In this document: positions 1,588 through 43,120 of the stretch, one piece after another
Numbering within the stretch: position 1 is the first letter of the stretch
Layout: every line of letters begins with the position of its first letter
IMG/VR virus record: IMGVR_UViG_3300045988_164075
Reading direction: 5' to 3' (one strand)
Source: a virus
Length of the DNA stretch: 64,000 bases
Program-made: the position numbers and the translations under genes
Notes under the pieces: generated by a model
The model's database searches: none
Seen by the model: the letters and a program-made list of their open reading frames with translations, nothing else
What the model was told of the DNA's origin: nothing

Positions 1588-1630
1588 TAAAAATACCCTA
1601 CATGCTTCGGCGTGTAGGGTATTTTTTTTA
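1588..1630. terminator. bidirectional intrinsic terminator at the convergence of plus- and minus-strand transcription
   Basis: A 13-bp stem ATACCCTACATGC/GCGTGTAGGGTAT closes a C(UUCG)G tetraloop (1593-1622). It is flanked by an A-run upstream and a T-run downstream, so a U-tract follows the hairpin on either strand. Confidence 0.75.
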
Positions 1631-6073: not shown

Positions 6074-6155
6074 AGCAATCCTCTTTTATTGTTTTATCTG
6101 AAATTAAACTATTTTTAATAGTAGCTAATTTTTGATTCAATTTTATATATTCTAT

Positions 6156-9100: not shown

Positions 9101-12100
9101 GGTCTAGATTAATATTTGCTACAATTCCATGATTGTGTATTCGAGTAGTAAACATTAACCGATCAAGTAATTCTACGGCTTCATCATTCCTTCCTGTTTT
9201 TAATAGATCAATAAGTTCACGATATTTCGTATTGTAATAGTTAGAAAGTAAGAAATATACTTTAAGCGATACCGCAGTAATACCAATCACTTCTTTACCT
9301 ACCATATTTTGTTCTTGCATAACAAACTTACTTGCGGGATTATCAGAAGTTCTTAATTTTTCTTCTTTTCCTAATGCTGATTTCTGAGCAGCCTTTTGAG
9401 GATCATCCATATTAATAGGAATGTGTAGATTAATTTGATTCTTTGGATTTAAAACTACATCTAAAATTCCATCAACAACCCTATTTTTTAAACCCTCGTT
9501 TATTTGCTCTGTAGTAAGTTCTGTTTGTGCATGTTTATTTAAGTCTCTCAAAAATATATAGCGACTGTTTGGTTCTACCGATTCGTCAAATGCAATACTA
9601 TTGTAGTCTCCTTCTAAAATCGATTTAAATATTTTTAAATTTCCATTTAACAGTACATCATCTACTTCCTCTTTCGTTACATAATATCCATTTTCATTAT
9701 CAATAGTATAGTGTTTGTGATTTGGTAAAGGAAGTTGTCTAACTTCATTTAAATCATATGTATCTGCTAATCTTGAAGGATAATATAAAGTTCCATCGTT
9801 TTTAACAGAACATCCAAGTATATACTGTTTATCAATCATGGTGTTAGCTGTATATTTCTATACAGATCAGACTATATCTTATCTTAATATATTATTCATT
9901 AAGACCTCTCCATTTCCACTTTTTCAAGTGTACCTTCGACAGTATTTTCATCTGTCTCTTTTAATAACTTCATATATTTTTCACACTCTATTTTATCAGG
10001 AATTACCTTATACATCATATGGGGACACATATAAGGTTTAATTATTTCTATTAGCTTTCGTCCTTCTCTAGCGCAAAAACTAATTATATAAGATTGTTGT
10101 CGTTTATCAAAAACCTTTGTAGGATATAAATCTCACTCAGTATTAAAATATTTAATTATATCCTCAGCTTGTTCTAATTTGCAATAAGTAGATATAGTAA
10201 TATAAAATCCTGCATAAACTCTATCTCCATTTTTATTAATTCTAGAACGTCTTGATAACGAACCGTCGTCCATAATTCAAATTGCTAAACCTTGAGGACC
10301 AAGTCTTTTCAATAATTTACTATTATATTTTGTTCTTCCGTTTTCATACTCAACTCTTCGAAGAACTTTACAAAAATCTGATACAGAAGTTTGAAATCCG
10401 TATCTAGTTACTACTTTACCTTTAGAATAACCATTTACTTGTTCTCATTCTCTAAAAATACCTACTTTAACTCCATTATCCTTAAGTAGTTTTCATTTTC
10501 AGTAACAGTATTCTTTTTGTGCTTTGCAATGATTTATATTTAAATAACCTTTTGTATGTATATGTCCATCCCCAATAGACATAGCAATTATTAAATTTCT
10601 TCCTGTTTTATTTAAGCGTGTTTTTAATTGTTTCATACTATTAAAGTCGAATTATTAAGTTATTAATATTAGTCGTTGAACCTTCCATTTTTATATGGCT
10701 TGGCTGCTGATTGTCTTCGCCATAACGCGGTCAGAGTTTCCAGCAATTAAAAGAGTTTTAATACGACATGATAAGTTTATCGTAATCGGAGCCTTCCATT
10801 CACGTAACTACTTTAGCTACATAAACATCATTTACTTCACTATCTGTAAATATTACAATCTCCATAGGAGCAAATGACTGCATTGATTGTGACGGTATGC
10901 GAGTACCTACATGAAGTAAAGACTTTTCAAATGCTTCATATTGATTAAACGCTAATTGTTTTATTCTTTGATTAAAGTTATATATTTCATTTTGATTTAA
11001 ACTTACGTAACTAATATCTGCTGTTGGATTGATTTTAGCTTCATGTAAGTTTCCTTCACTATCTCTAGTATGTAAAGCAATAGGAATATTATTTTCTATA
11101 TTGTAACGAAATTGATAAGGTAATAATTTTTTAGTATTTTCGCTAGTATAATTAAATTGATATGTATTAATTAATCCTGATTTTCTTAATTCACCTAATC
11201 GATCTATAGAATTTATAATAATTAAATCATGAACATTTCCATTTGTATCCGTATACTTATAAAATTGTTTCTCATCATTTGTTGAAAATTCTTTTTCATT
11301 ATAGTATACAATATTATCAATAATTTTAAAATCAGGATTTGGAGTAATACTACCTGTAAATGCTTTTGGAACTTCTTCTGTTCTTAAAACTTTTACATAG
11401 AATTGTTTTCCTGTTCCATCAAATAATACAATATCATATGTTAATTTATCTGGATTTCCAATGTTATAGTTACTTTGCATTCGATTATAAAAGAAATTTT
11501 CTTTTTCTTGTCTAATCTGAGCAATAGAGTCTCCTTTTTGCAATCCAAATTGTTGAGCTTGCCTTTTCCCCATTACAATTTGAGTTGGAGTAACATTAAC
11601 ATTAGATACTTTAACAACTCTAACATTTGGATTAGTAATACCAAAAGCAGTATTATTAATAATAGATTGATTGTCAGCTAAACTATTTAGTTGTAATTGT
11701 ATCTTTTGTTGTAAATCAGATAATAGACTATCTATGTTTAACGGTATATTATCGATTGGATGTAAACCTAATGCAGATGATAGTAATGTTTTTTCATACT
11801 CTGTTAAATCCTCCCAGTTCTTTAATTGTTTTCTACGAGAACTTAAATAATAAGATGCTCTTACTGCATCTAAGTCATATATACTAAAACGTTTATTTAT
11901 TTCATTTCCAAATCCATCTAAGCCTACAACTACATCAAAAAATGTATTTGACTGTTTTAGATTTTTAGGTTTAATTGTTCAGTTATAGTATTGTTGTCCT
12001 AAAGTTGCTTGGTGCTTATATAAATCATATTTTTCTAAGGAATCGATTTTAATAACAGTAGGATTATCTTCTTCATTAAATATTACAATTGTATCTTCGA

Positions 12101-15100
12101 AATCAATATCATTTGGCTCAATTGGAATTATAAAAGGATTTATTTCTCCATCAATAATAGGTTCTGTTAAAGCACGTTCAACTTTACTTTTTATAATATT
12201 TCCGTTTTCATCGTATAAATGATCAATACCTTTTGTATTTACTAAATTATATAATTCTTCATACTGATAATTAAGTCCATCAATATTATAGTATTGAATC
12301 ATATTATGAGAAGGAACTAGTACAGATGCTATACCAGAATATTTACGTCTAATTCCACTTTTAACTAAGTTAGATGTTGTAGTAGCAATAAAAGCTCCAT
12401 TAATTGTTGCTGCGCTAAATGGTAATTTATAATCTAAATTTGCATTTTTAAAACTTTCATTAGCTAAATAAACAAATGATTGTGCTAACCCTAAAGTATC
12501 TTTGTCATCATTCATAAAAGCTTTAATTAATGATCTACCTAATATAGTATACAGTTGATCTTTATCTTTAGCTTTAATTGTTTCTGACAAATCATTCATG
12601 GATTCTTTAACAATCTGACCAATTTCTTTATAAATCTGAGTTACTAACTCATGTGTAAATCCATTTTGCTCTAAAGCACTAATCATTTGCGTCATTTCAG
12701 TAACCTCTGACATGTCTAAATGGTGGTCAGCGTTCATTTGAACTCCTCCAAACTTAGTAGACATTTCAATAGTAGTAAATGCATCAGAGTTACTTCATTT
12801 ACTTGAATCATTTATATTTCCTGCTCCAACTTTGATTGCAGATTTATTAACTAAATAAGCAATAAACTTATCTTTTAATTGCTCTTTGTTAACAATATTT
12901 TCAAGTATATCAATATTAGATTCAGAATATTCTAAACGATTTATGTCTTCATTAAATTTCATTGCTCAAGATCCACCAAATACTTGATCAATATCGTATA
13001 ATGTATTTATTATATGAGTTGTCTGAATAGTATTGTTTGTTTCTAATCCATTAGATTCAACTTCAGTTAGATCTCTAACAACTTCAATTAATCCATTCGG
13101 ATCTAAAATCGTTTTGATTGAATTTATTTTATAATATTTATTAGTTCGAATATCTTTAAAATATATAGGATCAAATGTATTATAATAATTTTCTAAAATA
13201 ATAGATTTGTTAATTGGAATACTATGCATTTTTTTAAAGATATTTTCTAATGAAATATCTGAACCATAAGAAATACGTCTTCTTTCATTACTTATATCAA
13301 AAACAGCCCATTTTAATAAAGTTGGTCTACCATACCGAGAATCGATATCATGCATAATAGTTTTTTTATCGCGCCCAACTCTTGCATCTAAGAGTGAATT
13401 ATTTTCTGCTCTAGATTCAAGTGGACTTGATAAACCAGATCCATCCATAGTATCTAATCCAGTATTTTCATCTCCTAACATATTTCAGGCTGTTCCCGCT
13501 TCATCGTTAATTACAGCAATTTTAATATTTGAAGCAACTCCATTTTCTAAATTTTGAGCAAATGGATGGTAAGTAGCTCCAAATATTACCATACGTTTAT
13601 ATTGAGCAATTAGTCGATTAGCTTCACTAAATTCAAAATATTCTTTGCTATCTAACTTTCCATCTTTGTTTTTATTCGGATGTGCATAAACACCTCCTAT
13701 CATCATATTATTATACTCATTTGATAATAGAGTATCAGTAATAAAATATGATTCTAAAATGGGATTTAGTTTAACTTTTCATTTTGGATTAAGTAAAGCA
13801 TCAAAATCAACTATTTTATTGAGATTAATTCTTTTACCTTTTTCATCAGTTACTTCAGCTAATGTAATTTCTCCATTTCTTTTATTAACTAATGATTTAA
13901 ATTCAGGTTTATTAAATGTTTGAGAAATAAAACTATCCTGATTAATATTTAAATTAAAGTTATTTACAAGTAAGTCCTTTAGGAATTTTCTTTTTTCTCT
14001 ATCTAAACGTTCTAACGTTTTATTTTGATCATTATAGACTTTAAAAAAGTTTTTAATAGTTTCGTTAGTTCGAGGGTATTTACTTAAGGCAGTTTTATAT
14101 GCATGTATATCTAAAAAGAAATCAACTCCCTTAGCATTAAATGCAGATTGAATACTTTTTAAACTGTGATTATATTTCGCAATGAATTCATCAATCTGTT
14201 CTAATGATGTAAATTCTGTATCAAAAGCAAGACTATAGTCAAACAATATATTCTGAACTAATGCATTTATTTGGTTTTTTCTAGTTTCTCCTAAAAGATG
14301 ATATAAAGGATCTAAAGTTCCATCTCCTTTTAAATAGTTATTTAAAATTTCTTTAATGTTTACTTCTCCTAGAGAAGTATTGATGGTTTTACCTATATTA
14401 TATGTTATTAGAAAATGTTTATTTTTATCAGAAAAAGTAGTCGGTTGTAAATAAATTAATCCCTCTAAATTATCTACTAGATTTTGATAAAAATCGTGCA
14501 TGATAGATAATCTTGCAACTTCACTAACTTTTAAATTAGCAGGTTTTTTAATTTTTCCATTAATGTTTATATCCGATCGAATTCTAGGAGATAATAAAAA
14601 ACCGCTTTCAATATTTTGTACTATTAAATTATGTGCAGCTACATTATTTGGATGTTCAATTGTTTCTGTAGGTGGATTAATTAGTCTATCAAATATTTCG
14701 TTATGATTATATACCAAACTAATAATTTGATATAATGGCAAGTTATTTCCCTCTGCATTTTTAATAATATTAATAGTATCCGAACCATTTGTTACACTTA
14801 ATACATTAGCTACTTTTCATATATCTTCTGTAAATGGAACTAAATTAACAAGATCGTGTTCTTTAGTTAAAATATCACTATTGTTTCCATCTAATAACGT
14901 CGTAGCTAACAATGGAACAAATAGTTCTGTTTTTGTATATTTTTCAACAGGATATACCTGAGGAATAATTTCAGCTATATTTTCTGGAATTATAAAAGAC
15001 ATAAAGTTATATATCAGATCGTTCAAAGATTGATCATTAATTTCTCCAAACGATCTATATATCATTTTGCCATTTTGATTTAATTCATAAGTAATAGTAA

Positions 15101-16463
15101 ATGTAATAGGTATATTATCTATAATAGATTCAATAACAATTCTATCATTACCTATAGTAATTCCGTACTGATTTAATTTTTCTTTAAATAAATCAGGATT
15201 AGATCTTCAATAAAAACCTGATGCCTGAATTAAACTTCTAATATCGTATGCTTGCTGCGATACTGGTCGTTCTTTTAAATCTCTGCTAGCAATTGTCTTT
15301 TTTTGTGGATCAAAGCCATATGCTGTATATTGCGATGGCACTGTTTTAAAAGCCATTTGAGTAAACATAGCTTTTATTTCAGAAGACATTTGAGGCGAGT
15401 ATATAAATTTCTTAATACCTCGTAATTTATCTAATAAATATGTTCTATAATTTTTAGATATAATTCGGTTTGAAAGTATATTATTTATATATGCGTCTAT
15501 TAACACAGACATATCTGCTTTAACTCCTTTGTTTAATTCTGAACGATATTCTATTAAATTTTCATTTTCTTGAATAGTCTTAATAAGTTTTGTCATTACA
15601 GAATTAAATCCTGTTAAAGTAATACTAGTATTATCTATTTCTAAACCAACTGCATTTACTTCAGGAAAGTAGTCTAACAATATTTTTGATAAATCACTAG
15701 CATGGTCTTCCGCGTTTGTATCTTCATTAGTACTAAAGCCAGTATAGTGTATTACATTAGGACCTCTGTATATATAACGATCTACATAAGACGAATTTGT
15801 CTTTGTATATTTTGGATTAATAGTAATAAACGGAATCTCACTCTGCAATAACTTATCAAACTGAGTTAAAATTACATATGCGTCATATGCATTATTAAAA
15901 GCACTATTACGATCAATTAATTCTGAATTAAATACAGTTTCAAAATTAGTTAATATTTCTGAAACTCTATTATCAAAATTTGCAAGATTCTCTAAATTTA
16001 ATGTTATAGATTCAGAATTACCTAAATATTTTGAAATATTAGAAGCTAATGTTTTTTTATAATTTAAAATAGAATCATTTAAAAAAGTGATATCAAATTC
16101 TTGTTTCTTTTCATTAGCATTAATAAACTCTCCAGAATATCTATTAAATATAGAACTTTCGATTAATTTAGCTCGAAATTGTCTTAACATATTTGAATAC
16201 TGTCCATTATTTCCGATGTAAAAATCAGGAGTAGAATCAGTTTCTGTATTTAATTTTAATCCTAGTTTATTATCTACTTGATCTATGTTATTAATAGTTA
16301 ACGGAGAGGTGCTAATAATAGCACCTTCCGTAAACATATTATATAACCTATCTGAGTCATTAAAGAATTCATCTAGAAACTCTTTAAATGATTCAGGTTT
16401 AGTTGTTTGCATCCGTTTTACTAACGGCAAAAATTTTGCAGAGTAATTACATTTAGCACTCAT
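6156..16463 (-). CDS. giant multidomain protein (~3000 aa after splicing), candidate crAss-type virion RNA polymerase/zincin protein, with exons 10785..16463, 8943..9836 and 6156..8585
   Basis: ATG 16463 (MSAKCNYSAKF) to TAA 6156-6158. All same-frame fragments are joined by TGA only (gaps checked codon by codon). Two group I introns interrupt the frame. NADHHLD (~12714-12734) resembles the beta-prime NADFDGD loop. HEFTH (6525-6539) is an HExxH zincin motif. Exon lengths of 5679, 894 and 2430 nt are all multiples of 3. Confidence 0.7.
8586..8942 (-). mobile_element. group I intron, ORF-less (~357 nt)
   Basis: On the coding strand it has P AATTCAGGGAAAC, Q AATCCTGATC, R GAGCAACGACTAG and S GAAGATATAGTCTGAAC. 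A P9 hairpin CTTATAG-GAAA-CTATAAG is followed by the tail ...GTAACATCATTG. The proposed 5' splice site follows ACGGAU (P1 CGGAU/GUCCG) and is less certain than the 3' site. Confidence 0.7.
9837..10784 (-). mobile_element. group I intron carrying a LAGLIDADG homing endonuclease (948 nt)
   Basis: P TAATTGCTGGAAAC, Q AATCAGCAGCC and R GGTTCAACGACTA lie at ~10671-10760, and S AAGATATAGTCTGATC at ~9862-9877. A P9 hairpin CTGTATA-GAAA-TATACAG precedes the tail CTAACACCATG. P1 is CGAU/GUCG with U.G at the junction after ...GGCUCCGAU (10785). The downstream exon starts AUUGAUAAA (9836). Confidence 0.8.
9899..10636 (-). CDS. LAGLIDADG homing endonuclease (245 aa, five in-frame TGA=Trp)
   Basis: ATG 10636 to TAA 9899-9901, translated by hand. 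The two LAGLIDADG-type motifs are NLIIAMSIGDGHI and GLAI(W)IMDDGSL. TGA occurs at CY(W)K(W)KLL, RE(W)EQ, AI(W)IM and TE(W)DLY. The ORF lies between the R and S elements of the intron. Confidence 0.8.
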
Positions 16464-19400
16464 TATTCTTTAATCTTTCTAATAAATAATTTTGAACATA
16501 TTCATCTAATACAAGCAAGTTTTCACCTAATAGTTCAGGTTGTTTAAATATTTGATAATACATATTAGCTGTTTCAGCAGATATTTCTTTATTAGAAAAT
16601 AGATCACTTAAATAGTTTGTTATAGACTTTCTTATATTAGAAGGTATTATATCTTTAATACTAATAAAGTATTCATACATTTGTTTATAACTGTTAAATG
16701 AATCAAATCTAAGTAATTCTCACTTATTATTGATCTTTGTTATTGTATACCCACTAGTTTCATTTTGCAAAGATATATAAAATGGAATAAAATTCAAAGT
16801 ATATGTTGGATTATCCTGAATCCGAACAAAATTATTTGAAGGTAAATTTGCGTTTTCTAATTTATTTTTAATTAGATTATCCATATCCTTTACAGTAATA
16901 AGCCTATATTCACCTGTTATAGAATCTATTTCTATTTGAGAATATGTGATATCGTTAGTTAAACGTTTTAATCTATCATTAATTTTTTCAATATTTTGAT
17001 TAATATCTAAACTAGTCTCAGGAGATAGATTATTTTCTTTTAAAAACGTATTAAATCTATTTAATTGTTCAACTTGTTCTTTTTGTTGATTAATTTCTTC
17101 TTGTTGAATAGATGTTTTAATAATTTGTGTTTTATCAATTGCATATATAGGTCCATGAAATTTAGATATATCTACTTTATAGTCTTTACGAGGATCTGTT
17201 AGGCCAAATATGTATCGAGTAATTGGTTCTTTAGTCTTGTGATCCTGTGCATAAATGCCATTTTTAAATAGACTAGAAGTAGACATAATACTATTCAGAA
17301 TATCTAAATTTTCAACTCCTGTAGATAAAGTATCTAATATTTCATTTGCTGTATGTTGTCATACAGAATTAACAGGAACTCATTTATATGTTCCATTAGA
17401 TTTTATATATTTTTGATAATTGTGTTGAGCTAAATAAGTTTGTAAAGTTTTGGGATCAATATGTTCTTTAAAATCTAATCCGTACATATTTCCTATTTTC
17501 TCAACTAATAAATAAATATTATCAATCGAATTACTTGAAACAGAAGTTATTTTCTCATCAATACTTTTAACTTTTTTATTGTCGAGACTATATAATACAA
17601 ATTGATCATACTCTTGTTTTACTAAGAATGATTTTATTTCATTTTGTCCAGTATCCTTATTTAAATAATTTAATGTAAACATAATTCCAGGAACTCTCCT
17701 ATAACTATTTTCCTTGGGAGTTCTATTAGACGAAGTATCTCGTTCTTTAGTTATGTGTAATCTTAGGTTATTAAATAAGATTTTTCTTATTTCTGAATTA
17801 GATTTTGCTAAGTTTAATATTTCTGTTGTAATTTGCCCTGCTCTAGTAGCGTAGACAACTTGATAATCTTGTCGAGCATGTTCGTTATAAATAGGGTTAG
17901 TTGATATACCCATTTCCTTAGCTTTTTCTATCTCTATACTTCTTTTTGCTATTTTAGCTCTAGACTCGATAATAATTTCAGATAATTGTTTTACTTGTTG
18001 AACTCCAAATAATACAAAACGCGCGTCAGACTGGACTAAATATGTAACATTGTTTTCAGAATCTAAAGTTGGATGCATATCCTTCTTAAATTCCATACTA
18101 TTAAGCATAAGATCACTACTAATTAAACCCATTGCCTTACCAGTAATTGCTTTTGCAACGGTGCGAGTGCGTTCATCTTTAATAGAATCTAACTCTTCAT
18201 CTTTAACTACAAAGGTAATATAATAGGGAAGTATTGTAAAATAATTATTAGCATTTAAATTATAAACGTCTCGATTTACTATACCATCAGAATCGTACGT
18301 TATATCTTGAATCATTTTAATGTCGCCATTATAATCTCCAAAACTATTAATAGTTAAAAGAATTGGAATACGTACATTTCGAACTCCTTTATTATCGTTA
18401 ATTGATATATCAGCTACTAATAAGCCTTGCTTACCTCTATTATATGGAACGATCTTTAACTTAGCGTCTTGTAACGAATTAACAATAGCTTTGTTTTTAT
18501 CTCTATTACTAGGTGCTAATAGATTTAATGAAATTTCTAGACGATTTTTTGTTTGATTATGTGTTTTATGATGCCCATGTAAAAAATAATTTGATAAACG
18601 ATAAACATACTGTATATACTTTGATTTAGGAATAGATTTTCTAAATTCAAATTGTTTATAAATAGAATTATCATTCTCATTTACATCATAGTCTCATAAA
18701 TTATTTGTAAATCAATCTAAGGTTAAATCAGATTCTATTGTTATATCTGTATTACTTGGTCTTAATAATGGAGCACTTTTTACAATAGAAGTAGTCTCAT
18801 CAGTTTTAGAATAAACTTTTGGTTTAGATTCTAAATTTGTTTCAGAAACAGTATCTTCAATTGCATTCTCTAGTGGAACTTCTCCTGACGGAACTGTATT
18901 TTGAGATGATAATTGGGTTTCGTTTAGATTACGTTCACCAATATCACTATTAGCAATAGTTGGTTCTGATTTTTGAGATTTATCAATAGGAGTATTTACT
19001 ACTGTAGGTTGATTCTCCTTTTGATCTTTATCAATTGTTGTTTGAGCAATAGGAGTTTCAGGCGTAGAAAACTCTGGTTCATAAGTTAAGTTAGAATATA
19101 CTGGATTACTTTCAATATTTAAAAGCGATCGTAGTCTTCAATTTTTAAACGCATCAATATCATTTTGTTTAATTTCAATGTTATTATTAACCGTTTCATC
19201 AAACTGTGTAGTTATATTTAAAGTATTTCTAAGATATTTATCGCTATCTAATATAACTGATCCTAGTGTTGAACGTTGTGTTAAAGTATATAGATTACGT
19301 AATGTACCTCACTCTTGAGCTTTATTTCTTCATTCTTTATCAATAACAACATAGTCAAATTCAGATCCTTGAACTGCATCTAAATTAATAACTTTAGCAT

Positions 19401-22400
19401 TTTGTGGCAATCCTGTATATTTTTTAGGATTATCTGTTATGATTGCTATATCATTTGATAAATGTGATAATTTGTTAATATAGTCTAAAAGTTGATCATT
19501 TGTATCTACAATTTTCTCTCCAACAAAAGTATTATTGTTTTCGTAATATTCTAATTTAATTCCGCTATTTCAATAAGATTTTGTATGATTCGACAACTGG
19601 ATTGAATCAATATCGGGATTATCTTCATAGTATTTAATTCCTTTTTCTAATATTGCATTTAATGTTATATAATTATCATTTTTTGCAATATTATTTGGAC
19701 GTAAAGTAGCGGTTAGATTTGGAGATTTAATTAGATATGTATCTTCAATCCCTCCAACTACAGTTTTTGAATTAATTGTAATTATAGAACTATCTTGTTT
19801 TTTATCTCCAAATGCATATACCATTACATTATTTGTAATAGCTCAATTAGATATTAATTCTAATTCAGGGCGAGTAAAATGACTTATCTCATCAATAAAT
19901 AAAATTTTATTTGGAGTATTATCAAATAAACTAGTTACCTTTGGAATTATAAAGTCTTTTAATGTGATATAATCATTATGTAATTCATAATCGTCGGTAG
20001 TTAACTCTCTTCCAAGGATAGCTTTAATAAAATCAGCTTTATTAAATATTTTACTATTATCTGCTTTAATTGAAGTTGCTAACTTACTAGCTTGCTCAGA
20101 AGTTGGGGCTAATGAAATAAAGGAACTTGTTTCATTAAACAGTGTTTTTAATAAATAACCTACAGCAGTAGTTTTACCTGTTCCTGCTCCTCCAAATGTG
20201 CAATAAAAATTATATAGCTTTAATTTATTTTTAATATAGTCGCTTAAATTTGGATCACTTGGAACTAAACCATTAATAATTTTATTAAATAGTTCCTTGT
20301 TGTAATTCATTGCGTATCCGATTCTTACAGCATGTTCCTGTGAAAAAATTGGAATTTTATCAAACTCATCACTAGATATAATTGGTTTTAGAGCTGCATA
20401 AAAATTTTGGCTCGGAGTAATTATAATAGATGCTAAATACATTAATACATCATAATCAGTTATAATATTATCATTATTAGTATTTAGATCAGTAGATTTT
20501 TGTTTATACAACTCTTTATCGTCAAATAATGCAATTAATTTATTCGCTAAATCATCATTAGTAAGTTTCTGTTCATAAATTGTTTCAAATACCTCTGTCT
20601 CAAATTTAATTGCCGAATCCTCAAAAGTATTAAAATTTTCTTCAGTAACTTCTTCTGTGGGTTTATACTTATTTCAAATTTCATTTAAATTAATATGAAA
20701 CATATCAAATACTCTTTGTTTAATAAGACTATTCTCATTTGTTAAAGAATTAACAAATAATTGTTTCATATTAATTGTAATATCTTTTTGAACACGAGCT
20801 TTTTGTTCTTGATTTTTCTGTGATACTTCGAGTAAAATATTTAGTTTATTTTCTAATAATTCAATATCGTTTGATAGATTATAAAATGTTTCAAAATCAA
20901 TTTCAGGTAAAGATAAATTTCCTAGGTATTTATTAATAGAATTATTTATACCTTCTCCATCAAAGTTTACACTAGCATTTAATATAGATTTTATTCCTTT
21001 AAGAAATAATAATAATTGTTCTAATTGAGTTTTAGCGTTTTTATCCTGAATAATATAATCTTTAATGTTTTTACTTGCTATAAATTTGTTATGTTCATTT
21101 GCAATAATGTTTAATAATTGGCTAGGTTGCCCACCTAAACTAATTGCAAATACATTCAATAATTCATATATAGGAGATGCCTTAACTTGGGATCTAATAT
21201 TATAATATTCATTTAAATATTCATCTAAACGATAAGTTCCAATTCTTGGAAATACATAATTAAAGAAATCTTCAATTTGATTTTCATCTAAATCAGTTTG
21301 TTCTAATTGATTCCTTATTTCAGCAAATTTAGATAACACTTGTTCAGGATCCTCATCTAAAGATGCTTGTAATTCATCTAACAAATTATTGAAGTTTTCA
21401 TATCCAGTTATACTATAGTCAAATGAAACTGGATTTCCCATTAACTCTAAGTCGGGATTATTTTTATATAAATTTTGAAGTCAGGTAATATAACGTTGTT
21501 TATAAGACAAACTATTTTCGTCTTGCTGTTTTTTAACAGAGCGTAATAAAGTTAATACGTCTAAATCTCCAAAATCTGCTGATAAATTATTATTTTTTAG
21601 ATAACTATAAAAATTTAATATTGACTGAGCATAATTATCTATATCAGTTGTTGTAGATGATATTGGACGATGTAATATATCTTGTCCTTCAGTAGATATT
21701 GGATTAGTAATAAGTAATGCTGTATTTTCAGTATATTGTTTTTGAATATTCTGGAGTATTTCTTTTTCCGAAATTAGTCTATTTATTTCCTCAGAATTTT
21801 TTTCCTCATTACTTTTAAGTTCCTCTATTTTAGCATTAATAGCATCTAAGTTATTTGCAATTCTACCTAATGTAGAATAACGTAAACCGTATATATTATC
21901 TGCAACTTTTGTTTCGTCATTTATTTTTAGTAGAGAGTCTTTTAACTGTTGACTTAAATTTAAAAATAAATCGTATGCTTTATAAACTTTAGCTTTTTCA
22001 TCTAATTGCGTATACGCACTAAAGTTTTCTTTAGCTGTTTTTTGTAAATCTTCATTTAGTAAATCTAAGTCTTTTCCATACATGGTTTTTACATAATCGT
22101 GCAGACCCATATTTACAAATGCCTGATTTATAGCACTATTAGTTGCAAAAATAGCTTGTCCAAAATAATATCCAGTACGTTCTCCATTTAATATAGCGTC
22201 TCTACGTGCACGTAAATTATTGATTTCTTGATTTAATTTTTGTATTTCTAAATTTTGTGCATTTTGTTCTGCAATTGCTTTTTGCGTTTCATTAGTAATA
22301 GGAGTGTTTGGAGTAGGTTGATTTAATTTAGATAATTCTGCAGATTTACGAACAATTTGTTCTGTAATGTTATTAAAATCACTAAATATTTGTGTAGTAA

Positions 22401-24501
22401 CTCCTGATGCTAGTGCGGCTTCGGCTACTTTATCATAAGGTCTCCCTTCTTGATCATATACTTGAAGTTTTTTTAATGTTTCATCAGATACTTTTAAACC
22501 TTCTGATGACATTAACTTATCTACTCTATCAATGTAATCAAGTAATTGATCATATACAACATCGTTTTGACTTTCTTCCTCCTCTGCATTATGAAACTTA
22601 ATTTGAGTTTCATCTCCAGTGTTTACTAACTCATATGTTTTTCCTGATAAGTTTACATCGCCTAATTTGCCCTTTTTATGTAAACGAGCTAATTCATTTC
22701 TTATATCATCAGTACGTCCTTGACGTATTAAATAAACAATTTCTTGAGCAGTTTGATTATCAGATGTAGTAGCTAAATTACTACTAATTCCGTGTAATCT
22801 ATTTTGTCATTTTCCATGTAATTGAAATACGGGTCCTCCAATTGCACCTCCAAAGAAAGACATAGCATAACGTTGAGCAGCATCGCTAGCTGATCAACCA
22901 AAATCTAAACGTCTTTCACTTTCAGTCATATCAATGCCTAAAGCATCTCCTGCAGCAAACAAAGCTTTGGTTAAATCAGAAGTTACTTCTTCCATTACCT
23001 CTTCTGTTGCTTCATTTAATGCAGAATCAACTAATTCATTACTACTATACTTTGCAAATTGATTTTGAAAAAATTGCTTTCCTCTAACGATAAAATTGGC
23101 AGCTTGTTTAGGAGTTGTAACAGATCATTTTGTTAAGTTTTCTTTTACCTCTTGCGCTAAATCTTTAACTGCTTTTTTAGCTGGATTTTGGTCTAAATAC
23201 GTTCCTTTGAATAAGAAATTTCTAAAGTAATCCATATTCATCAATCCATACATTCCTCCCATAACACTTAACATACCTAAACCTGCAACAGCATCAGTTG
23301 CCCCAGCATTTTTAAATTCTGAATAAGCTTGTTGAGAAGATGTACCTGCCATATAAGCAAGTGCTAGATTTCTACCTAATTTTTGTACTCGAACTGATTC
23401 TGGAGCTCCAGTTAAAATTCTTGGTATTTGTCCAATAACTCTTTGTTGGAAAAGTTGTAAAGATGTATCTTCAATCATCTTTCCAAGATTTTCTCAACTA
23501 AACATATTTTGTTGAGAATAATCAGAAACGTTAGAATCAAACCTAGCTGCATAACCTTCTATTTGATTTAATTTTTTAATAAAATCTGAATCATTATCTC
23601 CTCCAATAATTCCGTTAATACTTTTCATTAAAGTAGGAATTAATTGCGCTAATTCAGTTCCTGCAGATAAAGCTCCATACACTGATCCAACATATGGTAT
23701 TAACATAGGACCTACCTTAAATACTAGTTTTGATATAGTTCCTCCTAAACTTTTATCTAAACCATCAGAATCAAAAAAATCATATTTGTTTCACGCAGAT
23801 CCGTCTACTGTTAAAGTATCTTCAATACCTAAAACTTGCTTACCATATATTTCTCGATTACCTAATGTTTCATAATAAGTATCCCCATCTTCATTAAATT
23901 TGAGATCTCCTTTTTTATGCTGTAACGTTCGTCCATCAACTACATGTGTTCCATCTTCATCTCATGTAGCTAATACTAATGTAGGTCTATTTAAAGCTTT
24001 TCAAATTCCACCTTTTTCATTTGGAGTTCAATCTTCAAACTTCTGAGTTTCTCAATTAAATACTTTATTCTGTTGAGCTATTTCTCTAAAACTCATTGTT
24101 TGATTACCTCTACCAAATACATATTCTAATCCAGCAGAACGTCTTTCAGGATTTGCAACCTTTTGTATTGAAGGCAAATTATCTTTTACTTTACTTCCTG
24201 CAGGAGCAAAATAATCGAATGGATCATATTCATAAGTTTCTAAGAGTTTATTTTCAAACTTATTATTTGCATAATCATTATAGACAGTTAAGGCACTCTG
24301 ATAGAAACGATTAAATTTATTTTCATCAAATTGTCCATTCTCATTTTTAAAAGCATCAATTACTTCAGGAATATTTTTATAATATTCTCTAGTATTTATA
24401 CTTGTATTATCTGGAGTAATATCATTATTAGCAAAATCCTGTAGAGTCATATTAGGTTGGAATAGCAGTGTTGCAAACCAATCATTCTTCTTATTCTCCA
24501 T
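16453..24501 (-). CDS. giant virion-operon protein, 2682 aa, with Gly-zipper/hydrophobic N-terminal region and an embedded SF1 (RecD/Dda-like) helicase domain
   Basis: ATG 24501 (MENKKNDWF) to TAA 16453-16455. All 10 same-frame track fragments are joined by TGA only (every gap walked, no TAA/TAG). Walker A is FGGAGTGKTTAVGYL, Walker B is ILFIDEISHF (19843..20511 fragment), and DAVQGSEFDYVVID lies at ~19340-19380. It overlaps the next start by 11 nt. Confidence 0.8.
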
Positions 24502-24514: not shown

Positions 24515-26335
24515 TTAAAAATTTGTTTTTATTGCATTTTGATTACGTTTAGCAATTGCTTGATTTAATATATCTCTATAGTTAGATGTTGGAACTAATT
24601 CATTATTTGATTGATATGTCGCTATTTTTGTATCTACGATAGGCATAAATATAGAAGATTTATACATACTTCACCTACTAGACTTAGCTTCATTTGCTGG
24701 TTTTTTAGATTTAGTGGAGAAACCCTCTCCATAATTGATTTGCGTATCATAATAATCGGTAATTTCTTTACCTTGTTCTGTAGGTAAATGGCTAATTCAT
24801 TTCGAATCTTCATCTAAAGGCATTACTCTACTATTTGCATACCCAGTCATTATAATAAATGGTTTAACTGCGTTTGTATTAAATACAAAATTTCCTGTTT
24901 GTGAATCATAAGTTACATCTAAACCTAGAGTTTTCGCCTTTTCAAATTTTTCAACATTGGTAATATCAGGGAAATCATTTAAAAATTTTTGAAATTCTTC
25001 AAATCGTTCTTGAGATTCAAAATCAGGTTTATATGATCCATCTTGCTCAATAGTATATGGAAGTAGTACTCTATTAACCTGACTCGTACCGTCTCACAAT
25101 ACTTTATTAATATCTATATCTCTCACTTTTTGATCTCCAAAATATATAGATGATTTATCTACAATTTTCCCGATATCTGCTTTATCAAGTAATTGTTGTA
25201 AATTGGTTTGAGGTACTATATTGCCATTTTTATCTACAGGAGCACCATATGATTGAGCATAAGCACTAATTGCTATTTTTGAATCTGCTGGACTTAGTAA
25301 CATTTGACGACCTTCAATAATTCTTCCATTTGCAAGAGCTTCCAATTGACTAAGCTCTGTTTCATCTGGTTTTTTAGAACTACCACTACCACTACTTAAA
25401 CTATCGGTCATTTCTTTTTGGAATGCTAATTCTCTAGAATGTGTAGTATGTTCAGTTAACGCTAATCCAAGTAAATTTAATACTTCTGTTTTTGAATTTG
25501 GATTTCCGCCTTCTGCCGCAGTTTTAACTCTTAAAGCATGTAACATGTTACTAGGAAGTGTAGTATATAGATACTCTAATGCTCTTTCTGTACCTTGATC
25601 TTTATTTGTTATTTTATAATATCCATCAGGTCCTCCCATTAATAAACTTCTAAAACCATCTTCGATTTGTTCCTTGTTTTTTAAGGTATATCCTTCAATC
25701 GTTTTAGTTCCAAAATCTTTTATAACACCTTTCAGATAATTAACAATACTTTCCATTCCAACTGAATTAGAAAGATTATTTAATATATCTTGTCGATATG
25801 CTAATTCAGGTTGATGTTCTCTTAAACTTAAGAGCTGTGAATTAGTTAAAGCTTGGTATTTATCTTTATTAGAATAATATTCTGAAGGATCTACTGTTGA
25901 AATTCCATCATTTTCAGAATATACATACATTCTACCTTTATCATCAACAGCTGCTTCTGCTCATGATCTTTCTTTGGATAGCTGTTCTGTAGCAGCATCA
26001 TATAATTGTTTATTAAATTTAGTTCTATTTGCTAATGAACGTAGTTTAATAATATCTGAAACATTATAACTTTGATTAGTCGCCCCAAATAAGTTAGCAG
26101 AAAAATTTTTACTTTTATCTAATACAGCATTTGCTTGACGCAAAAATGTATCTACATCTGTTGGAATTCCATTTTCTGATATAATTTCTAATGCCTCTTT
26201 TGTAAATGTATCATCATTTGACAAGGTATTATTTGAAGTAGCAGTAGATATATTTCCTTGAACATTCTCATATGCATTATTAGGAATAAAGGGGGTATAG
26301 TATATACCCCCTGCATTATATTTTCTTATTTTCAT
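24515..26335 (-). CDS. virion/internal protein, 606 aa
   Basis: Fragments 25961..26335 and 25094..25930 plus an unlisted 3' part share one frame and are joined by TGA. It ends TAA 24515-24517. The N-terminus is MKIRKYNAGG. Confidence 0.75.
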
Positions 26336-29300
26336 GAGATGTTGCTTTTATAAATAATCTAACTATATTATTATTAAGTGATTTAACTGCTTCATTAGCA
26401 GCCTTATTCTGTTGTATTCATATTTCTTCGTGTGCAGGTCTGTGATAACGATTATATGAACTTACTTTTCCTCCTTTTCTTTGAGATAAAACGTTAGTAT
26501 ATGTTTCCGCATTAAATTGTGGACGCTTAAACAATGAATTATAGTAAGGAATTAATGATTTAACCTTTAAATTATAAAGTTGATTTTGGATACTATTATA
26601 TTCTTCAGGTTTATATTCACTTAATCAGCTTTCAAAGGAATAATTATCTCGTATGTCTTTGTTAGCATCATCTTTGTATCAGGTATCAAACTGGTCTCTA
26701 TAAGGCTTCATCAAATCTCTCATTTGTCCGCTTAACTCATGTTCTAATTTTCCTTGTAATAAAGTTGAATTAATAGCATTACGTTTTTCTTCATTTAATG
26801 CATTTTTAGCTCTTTTTTCCATTAATCAATTATTAAAGGATGTAAAATCATTAGCTAATTTGGAAGCTTTATTTTGTGCTAACAGCATATTAACATTAGC
26901 AATTATTTGTCTATTTTGATTAGCAACATCTGCTCTTACTTGAGCATAACGTCTTTTTAAATCATTATTTCTGTTTAAATAATCGCTAAATAATTCAGAA
27001 GTTTTTAATCTTCCTTCCAATCGAGTTTGATTTGCTTGAGATTGACCTTGTTGTTCTAAAGCATTTGCTAATACAGCATCAGAAGTGACAGGTTTATAGT
27101 TTTCTTCTCTAACTGCTTTATTTTCATAAGCAATAGGTACTCCATAAGTATTAAAACTATCGTAAATTTCTTGAGGTGCACTTAATGTAGCATTGTATCC
27201 AGATCTAATTCCCTTTTCTATTTCATCATGGAATTTACGATTATAAACTCTTGATCCTATTAATCCTGTTAAACTATATAAACTATCCTGATCAATTTTT
27301 GGAAGTTTTGCATTTATTGTTTGAATTCCTCGTCCTAATTTTGAAACAAAATCAAATAATCCTCCAGGAGCAAATTTCTGGATTTTACCTCCACTTTTAT
27401 GTGAACGTAAATATTGTATTAATTCCTTCATATCATCAGTTTCGTATTCTATACCGCGAGGTGTATTTACAAAATATCTATAAGTTAAATTGCCTTCACT
27501 GTCTAGACCATCCTGTATTTTAGTTGGAACTATTTGATTTTTTATAGCTTTTTCTGTTGCTTTTTTTGATAAACCAATAGGTGTAAAGGATTGTTCTCTT
27601 CCAGCATAAGGTGAATGAAACAATAAAAATCCATTATTTAATGTTGTATTATTTCGCACCTGTCCATATACAGGAACTTGTTCTCCAGTCCATCCACTTT
27701 CTTTAGATCCAATAACAAATCTTGTTCCGAACTTGTCGGGGTTATCTATTTGATAACGAGCAATTGCTCTATTTCGCATAGTTTGCATCATACGTGGTCA
27801 AAAGCCTTTCGCAGTATATTGTGCTTCTCTAATCTCTCTTGGAGCTGCTTTGAAACGGTTAATAAACTTTTTACCTCTTTGTTTAGCAGAATCTGTTATT
27901 TTACTTACATTTAGTTTTGCTAATTCTGATTTACTAATTAATTCTTTACTTGCTTTATCATAATCAACTTTTCCATTCTCTCCAACATATTTTTCAGCTA
28001 ATGCGGCATCATTTTTTAGTTTTTCATCAACTAAAGCTTGTTTTCTTGTTTCTATATTATTAACTGGCGTTACCTTATTTTCTTTTGGAAGTTTTTTAGT
28101 TGCTAAACGTTTATCAAATGCTAAACGTTTTAATCCTATCACAGATTGTAAACCAGTTGCAACATTTCTAAGATCATTTATAGTTCATTCTTTTCCATCT
28201 TCTGTTAAATTAGATAATGATTGTGCAGCATTTACAAGTCCTGCCGCCGCAAAAGTGCTTCCGATTAATTTAGCAGAATTTTTAAGGACTTTAATAGTTT
28301 TAGCTGTTTTGCCAGCAATTCCTACGCCTGGAATTAAAGTAATTGCATCTAATCCTAAGCTACCCAATGCTCTTCCAGCATCACCTCAATCAAGACCATC
28401 ACGCTTTACGTCGCTAACAAACTGTGAAATTGTTGAACCAAATCCTAATCCTGCAGCAACTGGATTTCCTCCTGTTGGAATTGAAGCAATCAAAGCACTT
28501 AAATCTCCAGCAATAGCTCCTAATTGTCATTTATCTGCAGGTGTTAGTTCTCCTTCTTTAAAGATATTTTTAACAGATGCTCCTTGTGTAATATCTGATA
28601 GATTATTAATAACAGTTTGCTTAGGTTCAGAGTTTACGCCTTTAGTTGTAATTTCTTTAAATACATTTCCAAATTGATATTTTGGAATTTTACCTCCAGT
28701 TTTATATTGTTGTTGAACGTAATTTGTATTAGCCTGTTGTAAGGCAGTACGTCCTTTATATTCATTAGAACTCCCTTTTGGACCTTCAAATAACATATTT
28801 ATATTAGCTCTAGTAGCTGGAACTCTTCTATCCTTTATAGCACTAAATAAATCTAAGTTTTTAACTTGTTTATAATCATTCCCAACTTGTATATAAATAG
28901 CTCCGTCATCACCCCTATAAATTCCATAATTAATCTTATCGTTTTGATCTATAAGTTCTCCGTAACGAGCTACTTTTAAATTATTAGAAACTTTTTGTCA
29001 ATCAAAACGATTAAACTTTGCAGGATTTCCTTGATTAATTGCAGAACGCAATTTATACGGAATTTGTGATGCATCAGTATATTCAAAGTAATGTGATCCA
29101 TCGGTATTTTCTCTATTAGGATCATAAGCAATATAATGAATTTTTTGAGGGATACCTGATAAATGTCTAGGATCATTAGGATTTATATATGCCTGTAAAC
29201 TTGCTCCGTTTGGTAAATCATATGCGTTACTTAATGTTGTTGCATATAAAGATTGCCCTGGATTTAGTTTAACATTTCGAGTAGCAGTTCACAGTGTAGG

Positions 29301-30458
29301 ATGATAATGTTGTTCTCTATTAAATTCACTTCATGTAACATTATTTGGTCAGTATTGTACTCCTGCTGAATTAATTGCATCAAAATCAAACTTATTTCAG
29401 GCATTTCTAAATGGCTGAAAAATAGTTCCGATGTTATCTACATTTCGTTCTACTTCTTCTGGAGAATATAAAAATCCATTGTATCCAAATCAATTTTGAT
29501 ATTTAGTTCCAGCTAATGGAGACGATTCTGTAAATACTGCCTTATCATACCCATTAAACAAGTCTTGTCAATTATCTATTCTTATTCTTCCGTTAATATT
29601 TGAAAATTTTGCATCTTTTCAAGTATCCTTCTTTAATCCTAGAGCCTGTCGAATTTTCTGAGACTCAATTTCTTCTTGTTGTGAAGAAGTAAGTATTTGT
29701 TCATTTGATTGATTCTGAAGAATACGAAGATCATTTAATACTTTTCAGTCATTTTCAGTTAATGTTCCAGATTGAATTCTATCTCTAATTGCAGCTAATT
29801 CTCCACTATATTTATTATAATAATCTCTAACCGCATTAGTATTAATTCCAGATACATTATAAGATTCGTCTCCTTTATCTCCTAATTCAAAATAATTAAT
29901 AAGATTATTAATATCACTAATTATAGCTGTATTAGATGGACGATTAGAATATATCTTTTTTCCATTTTTGTCAGTAATATAGTCTATATATCTATCTGTA
30001 AAATTAATATTTGTTTTTTCTAAAGGTTGTGCTTTAGGTGCTTCTGGAGCAATATACCGAAAGTTTCGCAATGAATCTAAAGCTCTAGCAGCGTTATCTA
30101 CTTTTGAACCAAATATAGAATCAAATCACATTCCAGCTTTAGAACGATCGCGATTCATTCGACGTTCCTGTCTGTTATTCAAACCTTGTAATTGAACATT
30201 TGGACTAACCTCATTATTTAATGAACTGAATGTAACGTCTTCACCTCGATTTAAAGCATCAATAACTCCTTTAAAATATGGCTGTTGAGAAGAATTTAAG
30301 TTAGATTTGCCAAAATTTAATAATTGATCTATAAATCCTTCGTTATTTGCATCATACGAAGTTCCATCAATTATCAAGTGACCTCTCTTAGGGGGCATTT
30401 GATTACTTGCTACTGCCATTGGCCCCCCATTATCAAATTTTCTTATTACTTGTGACAT
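26316..30458 (-). CDS. giant internal/ejection-type protein, 1380 aa
   Basis: Fragments 30126..30458, 29745..30071, 28527..28796, 28185..28367, 27798..28142 and 26826..27791 share one frame. The intervening 28797-29744 and 26319-26825 were walked and have no TAA/TAG. It ends TAA 26316-26318. There are Gly/Ala-rich hydrophobic stretches (AIAGDLSALIASIPTGGNPVAAGLGFG, LGLDAITLIPGVGIAGK). The N-terminus is MSQVIRKFDNGG. Confidence 0.8.
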
Positions 30459-30980: not shown

Positions 30981-31090
30981 AACCTAAAAATAATAATCAG
31001 AATGTATTTCATTCTCTACGGAGATGCTACATTAATAATATAAAACAAATAGGTTAGTCGAAAAGCCGAGTATTTTTACTCGGCTTTTTT
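30981..31090 (+). ncRNA. putative ~110-nt plus-strand transcript (sRNA or 13-aa peptide MYFILYGDATLII)
   Basis: It is bounded by the plus-strand promoter and by the hairpin 31062-31087, which has its best U-tract on the plus strand. No long ORF is present. Confidence 0.3.
31062..31090. terminator. intrinsic terminator hairpin (usable on both strands, better T-run on plus)
   Basis: AAAGCCGAGTA-TTTT-TACTCGGCTTT followed by TTT on the plus strand. On the minus strand it overlaps the last codons and stop of the 31076..31663 gene. Confidence 0.6.
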
Positions 31091-32864: not shown

Positions 32865-32865
32865 T

Positions 32866-37425: not shown

Positions 37426-37426
37426 A

Positions 37427-40714: not shown

Positions 40715-40728
40715 AATCTATTCTATTA

Positions 40729-41708: not shown

Positions 41709-41711
41709 TGA

Positions 41712-43066: not shown

Positions 43067-43080
43067 GTTATAATAATATT

Positions 43081-43120
43081 AAAAAATAAAGGCAAGACAG
43101 GAAAGAATCCCGTCCTGCCT
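43081..43120 (-). terminator. strand-specific intrinsic terminator
   Basis: On the minus strand GGCAGGACGGG/CCTGTCTTGCC forms 11 bp including two G.U pairs (these are A-C mismatches on the plus strand). A 7-nt loop is followed by TTTATTTTTT. Confidence 0.7.

Follow-up and report, generated by a model that had tools for sequence, protein, structure and literature searches.

No viruses are more abundant in the human gut than crassviruses, whose infection starts with an RNA polymerase delivered by the virion. In the IMG/VR record IMGVR_UViG_3300045988_164075 (64,000 nucleotides, hereafter the window), which its sequence assigns to a Zeta-like crassvirus, the gene for this virion RNA polymerase (vRNAP) is directly preceded by a gene encoding a 2,682-residue protein, here called the target, with a predicted superfamily 1 (SF1) helicase embedded in it. 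What would a helicase of this kind do beside a polymerase that enters the host with the phage? The answer we favor, with a probability of about 0.5, is that the target is a giant cargo protein expressed late by a Zeta-like crassvirus, and that it is packaged and ejected as the helicase partner of a vRNAP with a preference for single-stranded templates.

A divergent SF1B helicase predicted in a single reading frame

Positions 16453-24501 of the minus strand encode a single 2,682-residue polypeptide when TGA is read as Trp (genetic code table 4). The frame, read from 24501 to 16453, contains 21 TGA codons, one TGG and no TAG, and is terminated by TAA, which is the stop codon of all 29 window genes checked. 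Long open reading frames (ORFs of at least 150 residues, six frames summed) total a length equal to about 100% of the window with table 4, and to about 50% when table 11 is used. Where relatives retain TGA as a stop codon (all distant homologues, of which one uses the standard code and several are TAG-recoded), the columns at the TGA codons of the target are occupied mostly by W, Y, F, I and L, with W in 28 of 215 non-gap cells. A database protein of equal length and 97% identity (P0001) was independently called as one ORF. Codon counts, ORF coverage, homologue columns and P0001 thus indicate that the product is real under TGA = Trp, and the continuous table-4 frame proposed in an initial annotation of the window stands. 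Neither a transfer RNA (tRNA) nor a suppressor tRNA was found in the window, and a promoter and terminator scan within the target gene gave nothing above shuffled sequences; promoters of the Bacteroidota type are absent from the models of that scan, which makes it a weak test.

The helicase module spans residues 1331-1800 (Table 1). The initial annotation had located Walker A, Walker B and a RecD-type QGSEFD motif in order in one frame within 19300-20520; all three are there, with motif VI lying just outside that range. The Walker A signature GGAGTGKT (residues 1437-1444) fits the GxxxxGK(S/T) pattern, the Walker B IDE is at residues 1536-1538, motif Ia (LAPTSEQ) and motif IV (R1601) are also found, and motifs Ia, III, IV, V and VI occur in SF1 order. 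Invariance was judged from an alignment of 28 homologues that are 28-66% identical to P0001 (mean column identity 29%), among which R1601 is also invariant. Of the two Pfam profiles named by the initial annotation, AAA_30 was found at 40.8 bits (cut-off 27), whereas UvrD_C_2 gave 13.5 bits and stayed below its cut-off of 27.4, although the second RecA-like domain is visible in the predicted fold. Pfam AAA_19 was also above threshold (32.5 bits, cut-off 25.1).

AlphaFold2 modelled the helicase module with a predicted local distance difference test (pLDDT) score of 91.9 and a predicted template modelling (pTM) score of 0.91 from 29 aligned sequences. The modelled segment was residues 1331-1800 of P0001, which has two substitutions relative to the target, and the N-terminal segment modelled below is identical to that of the target. 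A Foldseek search of the PDB with the helicase model returned 94 matches at E <= 1e-3, and among the 50 listed almost all are SF1 helicases, including coronavirus nsp13, the alphavirus nsP2 helicase, RecD, RecD2, Dna2, Upf1, Dda and Pif1; the probability was 1.0 throughout, with template modelling (TM) scores of just 0.32-0.42. By sequence the nearest PDB protein in a family profile search was RecD (E 1.7e-4), and a single-sequence PDB search with the helicase region gave no match. The NCBIfam recD model TIGR01447 scored 30.1 bits versus a cut-off of 310 and the RecD2 model TIGR01448 scored 17.6 bits versus 500; with scores so far under these equivalog cut-offs, the target is not a RecD or RecD2 orthologue. 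The domain is therefore predicted to be an intact but very divergent SF1B helicase, and the complete RecD/Dda-like core recognized in the initial annotation is upheld by the profiles, the invariant catalytic residues and the model. A conjugative relaxase-helicase of the TraI/TrwC type, which also carries AAA_30, was ruled out by the lack of a relaxase domain and by the phage context.

Table 1 Features of the target gene and its neighbors in the window.
Feature	Positions	Strand	Remarks
Target gene, 2,682-residue protein	16453-24501	-	TGA = Trp; stop TAA at 16453-16455
Cys codon of C2682, last residue of the target	16456-16458	-	one of two Cys in the protein
N-terminal module, residues 1-620	22642-24501	-	most conserved; 63 invariant columns in alignment A4
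Gly/Ala-rich hydrophobic segment GSVYGALSAGTELAQLI, residues 272-288	23638-23688	-	conserved; inside predicted helix 271-299
Gly-rich hydrophobic segment AVAGLGMLSVMGGMYGLM, residues 404-421	23239-23292	-	conserved; inside predicted helix 403-422
Middle region, residues 621-1330	20512-22641	-	helical, partly coiled-coil-like; variable at about residues 850-1100
Predicted SF1B helicase module, residues 1331-1800	19102-20511	-	helical N-terminal lead-in and two RecA-like domains; Pfam, AlphaFold2, Foldseek
Motif I/Walker A, FGGAGTGKTTAVGYLLK, residues 1436-1452	20146-20196	-	G1440, G1442, K1443 invariant
Motif II/Walker B, ILFIDEISHF, residues 1533-1542	19876-19905	-	D1537, E1538 invariant
Motif III, FGDKKQD	19792-19812	-	G1565, D1566, Q1569 invariant
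Motif V, DAVQGSEFDYVVID, residues 1708-1721	19339-19380	-	contains QGSEFD; G1712, E1714 invariant
Motif VI, LYTLTQRSTLGS	19258-19293	-	includes YTLTQRS; Y1738, Q1742, R1743 invariant
Linker, residues 1801-1950	18652-19101	-	low-complexity, T/S/N/E/D/P-rich, gap-rich; disordered
C-terminal region, residues 1951-2682	16456-18651	-	lineage-variable; ends in conserved ...NNEC
Muzzle protein, start of the cargo block	32866-37425	-	Pfam crAss_MUZ, 116 bits
DUF192 protein	31076-31663	-	Pfam
1,380-residue Cys-free protein	26316-30458	-	Gly-rich hydrophobic stretch at residues 646-715; no Pfam match
606-residue Cys-free protein, upstream neighbor of the target	24515-26335	-	syntenic in 31/33 relatives
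vRNAP exon 1, downstream neighbor of the target	10779-16463	-	begins MSAKC; ends within DxDxD (..SDYD)
LAGLIDADG homing endonuclease in first vRNAP intervening sequence	9899-10636	-	phrog_11023, E 2.4e-18
vRNAP exon 2	8943-9836	-	begins ..IDKQY, completing D-Y-D-I-D
vRNAP exon 3	6066-8585	-	HEFTH zincin-like motif; ends ..KEDCYE
1,481-residue giant after the vRNAP	1628-6073	-	starts MSKC

Position next to the vRNAP gene and a helicase fusion in cr118_1

The initial annotation placed the target in an operon of virion proteins. Its position in a virion and cargo gene block is confirmed by a muzzle gene upstream and the vRNAP gene directly downstream, the start of which overlaps the target gene by 11 nucleotides. 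This arrangement is conserved. A protein database search gave more than 935 homologues of the target, the best 120 of which are 2,442-3,257 residues long and carry AAA_30 or AAA_19 in 119 cases. When a profile of the helicase module was run against 1.84 billion representatives, 250 clusters were recovered at E <= 1e-30 (clustered at 50% identity, the family being at least that large); most of the matches listed, and nearly all non-fragments among them, are 2,400-3,600 residues long with the helicase starting at about residue 1,200-2,100. We sampled 34 IMG/VR loci (helicase identity 24-99%), of which 32 contain complete genes. The N-terminal, middle and helicase modules lie in one ORF in 32/32 of these genes (2,563-3,254 residues), in TGA- and TAG-recoded lineages alike. 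The vRNAP gene directly follows the target homologue in 33/33 loci, with junctions ranging from a 13-nucleotide overlap to an 18-nucleotide gap, and a gene of about 600 codons precedes the homologue in 31/33. The gene order from muzzle to vRNAP was also found in two further loci (L001 and L002). Given this constant place just ahead of the polymerase gene, the helicase giant probably enters the host together with the polymerase and serves to open the incoming DNA.

The one exception is a split homologue in MT835492.1 (locus L004, 11986-21263), a TAG-recoded and unverified record. There the homologue is divided into ORFs of 1,540 residues (N-terminal and middle regions) and 1,555 residues (helicase and C-terminal region) that overlap by 22 nucleotides in different frames, which means that the two halves can be separate genes. 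Genuine fission of the gene and a frameshift error in the record could each account for the split, and the two look alike when the nearest relatives are only 25-35% identical.

A helicase is linked to the polymerase in another way in cr118_1 (Suoliviridae, MT774379.1, locus L040), where positions 5661-20501 encode a 4,946-residue DFDID vRNAP with a C-terminal Dda-like SF1B helicase. This fusion protein (QOR58373.1, named "DNA helicase" in GenBank) has DFDID at residue 3209 and Walker A at residue 4471, and its helicase scores 94 bits with AAA_30, 87 bits with AAA_19 and 46 bits with UvrD_C_2 in Pfam. Comparison of the target helicase profile with the fusion by hhalign gave a probability of 95.9% and E 5.5e-9. 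The cr118_1 helicase is nearest to the Dda-like helicases of T4-like and other phages, and among the matches listed no other falls within the vRNAP gene of a crassvirus (one further record matched with at least 99% identity). Two crassvirus lineages have thus each gained a helicase in the polymerase block, in one case as a neighbor and in the other as a fusion.

Published work on the phi14:2 vRNAP supplies a reason for such a link. That enzyme failed to transcribe double-stranded M13 DNA and was weak on the native phi14:2 genome, whereas it was efficient on single-stranded and denatured DNA, and its structural relative QDE-1 requires the helicase QDE-3 plus RPA (bioRxiv 10.1101/2020.03.07.982082). 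The single-strand preference of the vRNAP together with the helicase need of QDE-1 provides a plausible job for the target helicase. A replicative role is already filled in Zeta phages, which encode a primase and, as separate proteins, helicases of the DnaB and SNF2 families (PMC7886860).

The proteins of this block are known virion components in other crassviruses. The crAss001 proteins gp45, gp46, gp47, gp49 and gp50 were found in virions by mass spectrometry (Bayfield et al. 2023), were assigned to cargo zones in the capsid and the tail and were proposed to be ejected partly unfolded (PMC10172136). The annotations of phi14:2 g065-g069 likewise come from tandem mass spectrometry proteomics.

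Cysteines at the ends of the block giants

The giants of the block are nearly free of Cys, and their few Cys residues lie at the chain ends, facing one another across the gene junctions. This signature was noticed in the present analysis and is no established criterion. It was compared in the window and in loci L042, L003, L041 and L040. In the window the last residue of the target is C2682, the vRNAP begins MSAKC (the only Cys of exon 1) and ends ..KEDCYE, and the next giant begins MSKC; the Cys codons facing the target and each other are at 16449-16451 (vRNAP start), 6072-6074 (vRNAP end) and 6062-6064 (next giant), all on the minus strand. In phi14:2 (L042, 4031-20234) the match to this pattern is exact: the only Cys of g067 is its last residue, g066 has only C3 and C2179 and g065 has only C3. 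In crAss001 (L003, 11120-29724) gp47 has one Cys at position -3, gp50 begins MSKRC.. and ends ..KICGANTLYEL, and gp49 has one Cys, C5. The p-crAssphage gp45 ends ..SFSCM and gp44, its vRNAP, starts MSC. In cr118_1 the preceding product (13827) has no Cys, the RNA polymerase-helicase ends ..MKHCKGE and the next protein starts MIC. By position and by its C-terminal Cys the target corresponds to phi14:2 g067, crAss001 gp47 and p-crAssphage gp45.

Within the target family, where the median Cys content is 0.13-0.15%, a Cys lies within the last six residues in 120/120 homologues and within the last ten in 91/93 diverse representatives, a tally of 211/213 over the relatives of the target. At the facing end, a Cys lies in the first seven residues of the vRNAP in 33/33 loci, whatever the geometry of the overlap, which shows that the pattern does not simply follow from overlapping reading frames. 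We read the signature as evidence that would place the target in the functional class of the verified cargo giants. The terminal Cys of cargo proteins was not mentioned in PMC10172136, in the phi14:2 preprint or in the papers returned by a full-text literature search; the crAss001 tail is stabilized by disulfides (PMC10172136).

It is speculative that the C-terminal Cys of the target is disulfide-linked to Cys 5 of the vRNAP. A doubtful extension of this idea is that crassvirus cargo giants form a head-to-tail chain, in this phage helicase giant -S-S- vRNAP -S-S- nuclease-like giant, which would be ejected as an ordered chain and released by reduction in the cytoplasm, with the SF1B helicase of Zeta-group phages in the lead handing single-stranded template to a polymerase incompetent on duplex DNA.

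Regions flanking the helicase

Conservation along the protein is highest over residues 1-450, moderate to residue 850, low at about 850-1100 and moderate again in the helicase; it is very low over residues 1801-1950 and low over the last 730 or so residues. The helicase is the sole recognizable enzymatic domain in searches of Pfam, PHROGs, NCBIfam and the PDB.

The N-terminal model (residues 1-620; AlphaFold2 pLDDT 66, pTM 0.52) has a mixed alpha/beta layout to about residue 240 followed by long, soluble-looking helices at 250-620. The initial annotation saw a membrane-inserting ejection protein in this region on the strength of its Gly-rich hydrophobic segments. The segments exist and are conserved, with A406, G407 and L420 invariant in the second. 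Membrane insertion was not supported: the 19-residue Kyte-Doolittle maxima of both segments are about 1.25, which we take to be under the usual level for a membrane-spanning helix, versus 1.73 for the transmembrane helix of crAss001 gp45, and the scan found no such helix in the N terminus. A PDB fold search with the model gave nothing significant, the best matches being membrane domains of ABC exporters at a probability of at most 0.41, and it revealed no similarity to known ejectosome components. In the viral structure library (BFVD) the model retrieved family members labelled "RecD-like protein [Siphoviridae sp. gcode 4]" or "Helicase [Podoviridae sp.]", along with "CrAss-like virus" fragments; matches to "large polyvalent protein associated" domain proteins were weak (probability 0.85-0.9, E 0.04-0.06).

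For the middle region no Pfam, PHROGs or NCBIfam family was recognized, and a PDB profile search gave weak matches only, to designed coiled coils. The C-terminal region has no Pfam, NCBIfam or PDB match; its hidden Markov model matches the nearer clade only, and distant clades carry unrelated sequence there. PHROGs returned nothing for the target or for most of its neighbors.

Gene block and identity of the phage

The assignment to the Zeta group agrees with contigs of 146-180 kb, with TGA or TAG recoding and with genes interrupted by homing endonucleases, including within DxDxD; genes split by intervening sequences with homing endonucleases, DxDxD among the sites, were described for this group by Yutin et al. 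2021 (PMC7886860). The muzzle protein matches crAss001 gp44 (BLASTP E 1.5e-7, phmmer E 1.1e-9), and weak matches to ring proteins 1 and 2 lie further upstream in the expected order. A mollicute chromosome or conjugative element, which low G+C and TGA = Trp might suggest, was ruled out by the crAss_MUZ, ring-protein and DFDID vRNAP matches. Megablast of the 20 kb from 32000 to 52000 of the window against GenBank phages found no close relative.

The vRNAP pieces were mapped by tblastn with an uninterrupted 3,156-residue homologue (from L002; DFDID at residue 1919). The first break (10779/9836) cuts the catalytic motif between SDYD and IDK. The second intervening sequence (8586-8942) is without an endonuclease gene, and Rfam found no known intron in either. 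In the 1,481-residue giant that follows, residues 204-399 are homologous to crAss001 gp47 residues 1741-1933 (phmmer E 1.9e-6 and 3.9e-7), and the shared segment is PD-(D/E)XK-like with the motif IDMLVID..IYDFKVSRK. Domains found in the crAss001 giants are thus apportioned differently among the Zeta giants. Homology of the target itself to gp47, its positional counterpart, was rejected: hhalign with whole alignments and by module gave negative results, as did hmmsearch, phmmer and BLASTP. Searching a protein database with gp47 returned only sequences more than 90% identical. The block has a single strongly hydrophobic helix, residues 1374-1392 of the 1,481-residue giant (Kyte-Doolittle 2.16).

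Upstream of the target, a 20-nucleotide overlap (26316-26335) joins the 1,380- and 606-residue genes. Four nucleotides downstream of the overlap and just within the 606-residue gene is a perfect 10-bp G+C-rich hairpin at 26290-26312, AGGGGGTATA-loop-TATACCCCCT, in surroundings of 27% G+C. Further away, minus-strand ORF fragments 50195-50674, 47198-48572 and 45074-45889 alternate with GIY-YIG homing endonuclease genes (48613-49692 and 46115-47014). Together the fragments of 45074-50674 look like an interrupted structural gene, possibly that of the major capsid protein as in Zeta-group phages.

Trp codon use was recorded in several of these genes. The minus-strand genes 43148-44287, 50195-50674 and 51065-52138, which are likely highly expressed structural genes, use TGG only (2-3 codons each) and no TGA, whereas the giant genes use TGA almost exclusively, as in the target. 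Trp codon choice therefore differs by gene class within the recoded region. At the left end the strand switches, and plus-strand ORFs 1-714 and 714-1433 oppose the late block. ORF 714-1433 holds three in-frame TGA codons, showing that recoding extends beyond the minus-strand block.

Possible function and alternatives

The mechanism we propose for the target is as follows. Like the giants that this block encodes in phi14:2 and crAss001, the protein would be packed into the virion, and its ejection into the host would come before that of the DNA or together with it. Its ATP-driven helicase would then move 5' to 3' on one strand of the entering genome, or strip RNA:DNA hybrids, and this action would supply or recycle single-stranded template for early transcription by the vRNAP. 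More speculatively, the target and the vRNAP might travel as a disulfide chain that is freed in the reducing cytoplasm.

Several observations weigh against this reading. We infer the presence of the target in the virion from its context in a Zeta-like lineage, and comparison with the crAss001 and phi14:2 cargo proteins by hhalign, hmmsearch, phmmer and BLASTP (hmmsearch for the helicase module against crAss001) gave no significant similarity, nor did Pfam crAss_CARG1 or crAss_CARGO2 match the target; the packaging argument therefore draws on position and the cysteine signature only. The helicase profile also had no match in the block proteins of crAss001 and phi14:2, and Pfam found no helicase in gp45-gp47, so that a helicase is no general requirement of crassvirus vRNAPs. 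At 305 kDa the target would have to be partially unfolded to pass the tail channel. From sequence we infer the ATPase activity, the 5' to 3' polarity and the preference for DNA or RNA; RNA helicases (nsp13, nsP2 and Upf1) are among the top fold matches beside DNA helicases, UvrD_C_2 is below its cut-off and the alignment shows variation at the motif V Q. The gut is a reducing habitat, which counts against the disulfide idea. Finally, the 21 TGA codons of the target speak for a late gene, since in crass-like phages stop-codon recoding is mostly limited to such genes (PMC7886860), but the window is TGA-recoded throughout, which makes a contrast of late with early genes impossible here.

Four other explanations were considered. 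That the target is an injected anti-defense effector of the polyvalent type we regard as unlikely. Its helicase would act on incoming DNA in the manner of DarB to shield it from, or displace, restriction or other nucleases, and its variable C terminus would serve host-specific counter-defense. Helicases are indeed frequent in injected multi-domain phage proteins, for which antirestriction is the archetypal role (PMC5512222), and the weak BFVD matches of the N-terminal model to polyvalent-associated proteins, the zincin-like HExxH in the neighboring vRNAP exon 3 and the swapping of the C-terminal 700-1,100 residues between clades, as host-driven diversification would give, point the same way. 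However, no methylase, nuclease-inhibitor or other effector domain was recognized (Pfam, PHROGs, PDB, NCBIfam), the helicases of polyvalent proteins are SF2/SNF2 or UvrD-like rather than RecD/Dda-like (PMC5512222), and the strict vRNAP adjacency and the cr118_1 fusion favor transcription over defense. It is quite improbable that the target is a genome-internalization motor, with the N-terminal module docking at the envelope ejection channel while the helicase pulls in the 160-180 kb genome. RNA-polymerase-driven DNA entry in T7 and N4 is the comparison here, and the occurrence of the family on contigs of 146-180 kb, which represent the largest genomes among crassviruses, the conserved Gly-rich hydrophobic helices of the N-terminal module and the Cys-free neighbors with Gly-rich hydrophobic stretches, which resemble crAss001 C1, would fit. 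Against such a motor, SF1B enzymes travel on single strands and not on duplex DNA, the hydropathy scan predicted no transmembrane helix, known ejectosome proteins gave no fold match, and the vRNAP fusion in the 92.6-kb Suoliviridae genome is at odds with a size-driven need.

An ordinary, non-packaged late helicase for replication, recombination or concatemer processing, merely lying beside structural genes, is very improbable. Phage SF1B enzymes such as Dda and RecD-like helicases normally serve in replication and in recombination, the nearest relatives of the cr118_1 helicase are Dda-like phage helicases, the crassvirus replication genes include an "SF1 helicase" (PMC7886860), and the case for packaging of the target is contextual. 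Yet the helicase is embedded at about residue 1,350 of proteins of 2,400-3,600 residues in nearly all listed non-fragment relatives, the position between muzzle and vRNAP is invariant, the target gene overlaps the vRNAP start, the Cys-poor, terminal-Cys composition is common to verified virion proteins, and Zeta phages own separate replicative helicases (PMC7886860). We find it scarcely credible that the helicase fold is retained only to bind nucleic acid or to play a structural part, with no turnover of ATP. The sub-threshold UvrD_C_2 score, the variable Q of motif V and the very low similarity to characterized helicases (RecD in the PDB and the recD model cited above) could be so explained, but the Walker A Lys, the Walker B DE, the GD..Q of motif III, the motif IV Arg and the QR of motif VI are invariant, and their invariance over deep divergence is hard to square with a loss of catalysis.

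Should the helicase partner reading be correct, helicase and vRNAP would constitute an injected unwinding-transcription machine in Zeta-group phages, and the target family is a concrete candidate for the missing factor that gives the vRNAP its single-stranded template. Covalent chaining, if true, would explain the ordered ejection of several 150-300 kDa proteins through a narrow tail. The terminal-Cys rule could also serve as a simple marker for cargo proteins in uncultured crassviruses that lack detectable homology to cultured ones.

Comparison with known systems

Injected helicase-bearing phage proteins (DarB), crassvirus cargo proteins and helicase labels on relatives of the target ("RecD-like protein", "Helicase", "DNA helicase" in public records) are already known. 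Not described in the literature searched are the helicase giant whose gene is conserved immediately ahead of the vRNAP gene in Zeta-like crassviruses, the cr118_1 vRNAP-helicase fusion as its parallel, the link of a helicase to the single-strand preference of the vRNAP and the terminal-Cys signature. The text of Yutin et al. 2021 mentions no helicase in the transcription block (PMC7886860).

The view of the initial annotation that a virion-delivered helicase would be an unusual cargo enzyme was overstated, given those labels and the precedent of P1 DarB for injected helicases. DarB is a methylase-SF2 helicase fusion with an antirestriction role and the archetype of the proposed injected polyvalent proteins (Iyer et al. 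2017; PMC5512222). Like the polyvalent proteins, the target is very large, is encoded in a virion-associated block and has a helicase, a module recurrent among them (PMC5512222). DarB combines an SF2/SNF2 helicase with a methylase, whereas the target shows one recognizable enzymatic domain, and the curated LPD domains of Pfam were not detected in it. The giant vRNAP of N4 and other Schitoviridae belongs to the T7-like polymerase family, unlike the crassvirus vRNAP. Abstracts on their ejection proteins mention no packaged helicase, and the PDB fold search with the N-terminal model gave no match to those proteins.

With RecD, RecD2, Dda, Pif1 and the Upf1-like group (Upf1, nsp13 and Sen1) the target shares the seven SF1 motifs and the fold of two RecA-like domains, but unlike these SF1B helicases its core is embedded midway in a 2,682-residue protein. 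The nearest counterparts in genome context are the crassvirus cargo giants (crAss001 gp45-gp50, phi14:2 g065-g067 and p-crAssphage gp44-gp46). Like them, the target has its place after the muzzle gene and beside a DFDxD vRNAP and is a giant, near Cys-free protein with a terminal Cys that faces the N-terminal Cys of the vRNAP. For those proteins presence in the virion has been demonstrated, whereas for the target it is predicted from gene context; the target has no detectable homology to them, the helicase domain is on its side only (crAss001 and phi14:2 were tested), and the window counterpart of the nuclease-like region of gp47 is in gene 1628-6073 and not in the target. The cr118_1 fusion resembles the target in having an SF1B helicase within the crassvirus vRNAP block, and it has a near-terminal Cys followed by a protein that starts MIC. 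Its helicase is far more canonically Dda-like and it lacks the N-terminal and middle modules of the target. In cr118_1 the polymerase polypeptide itself carries the helicase as its C-terminal domain, whereas in the window the helicase resides in a separate protein encoded directly upstream.

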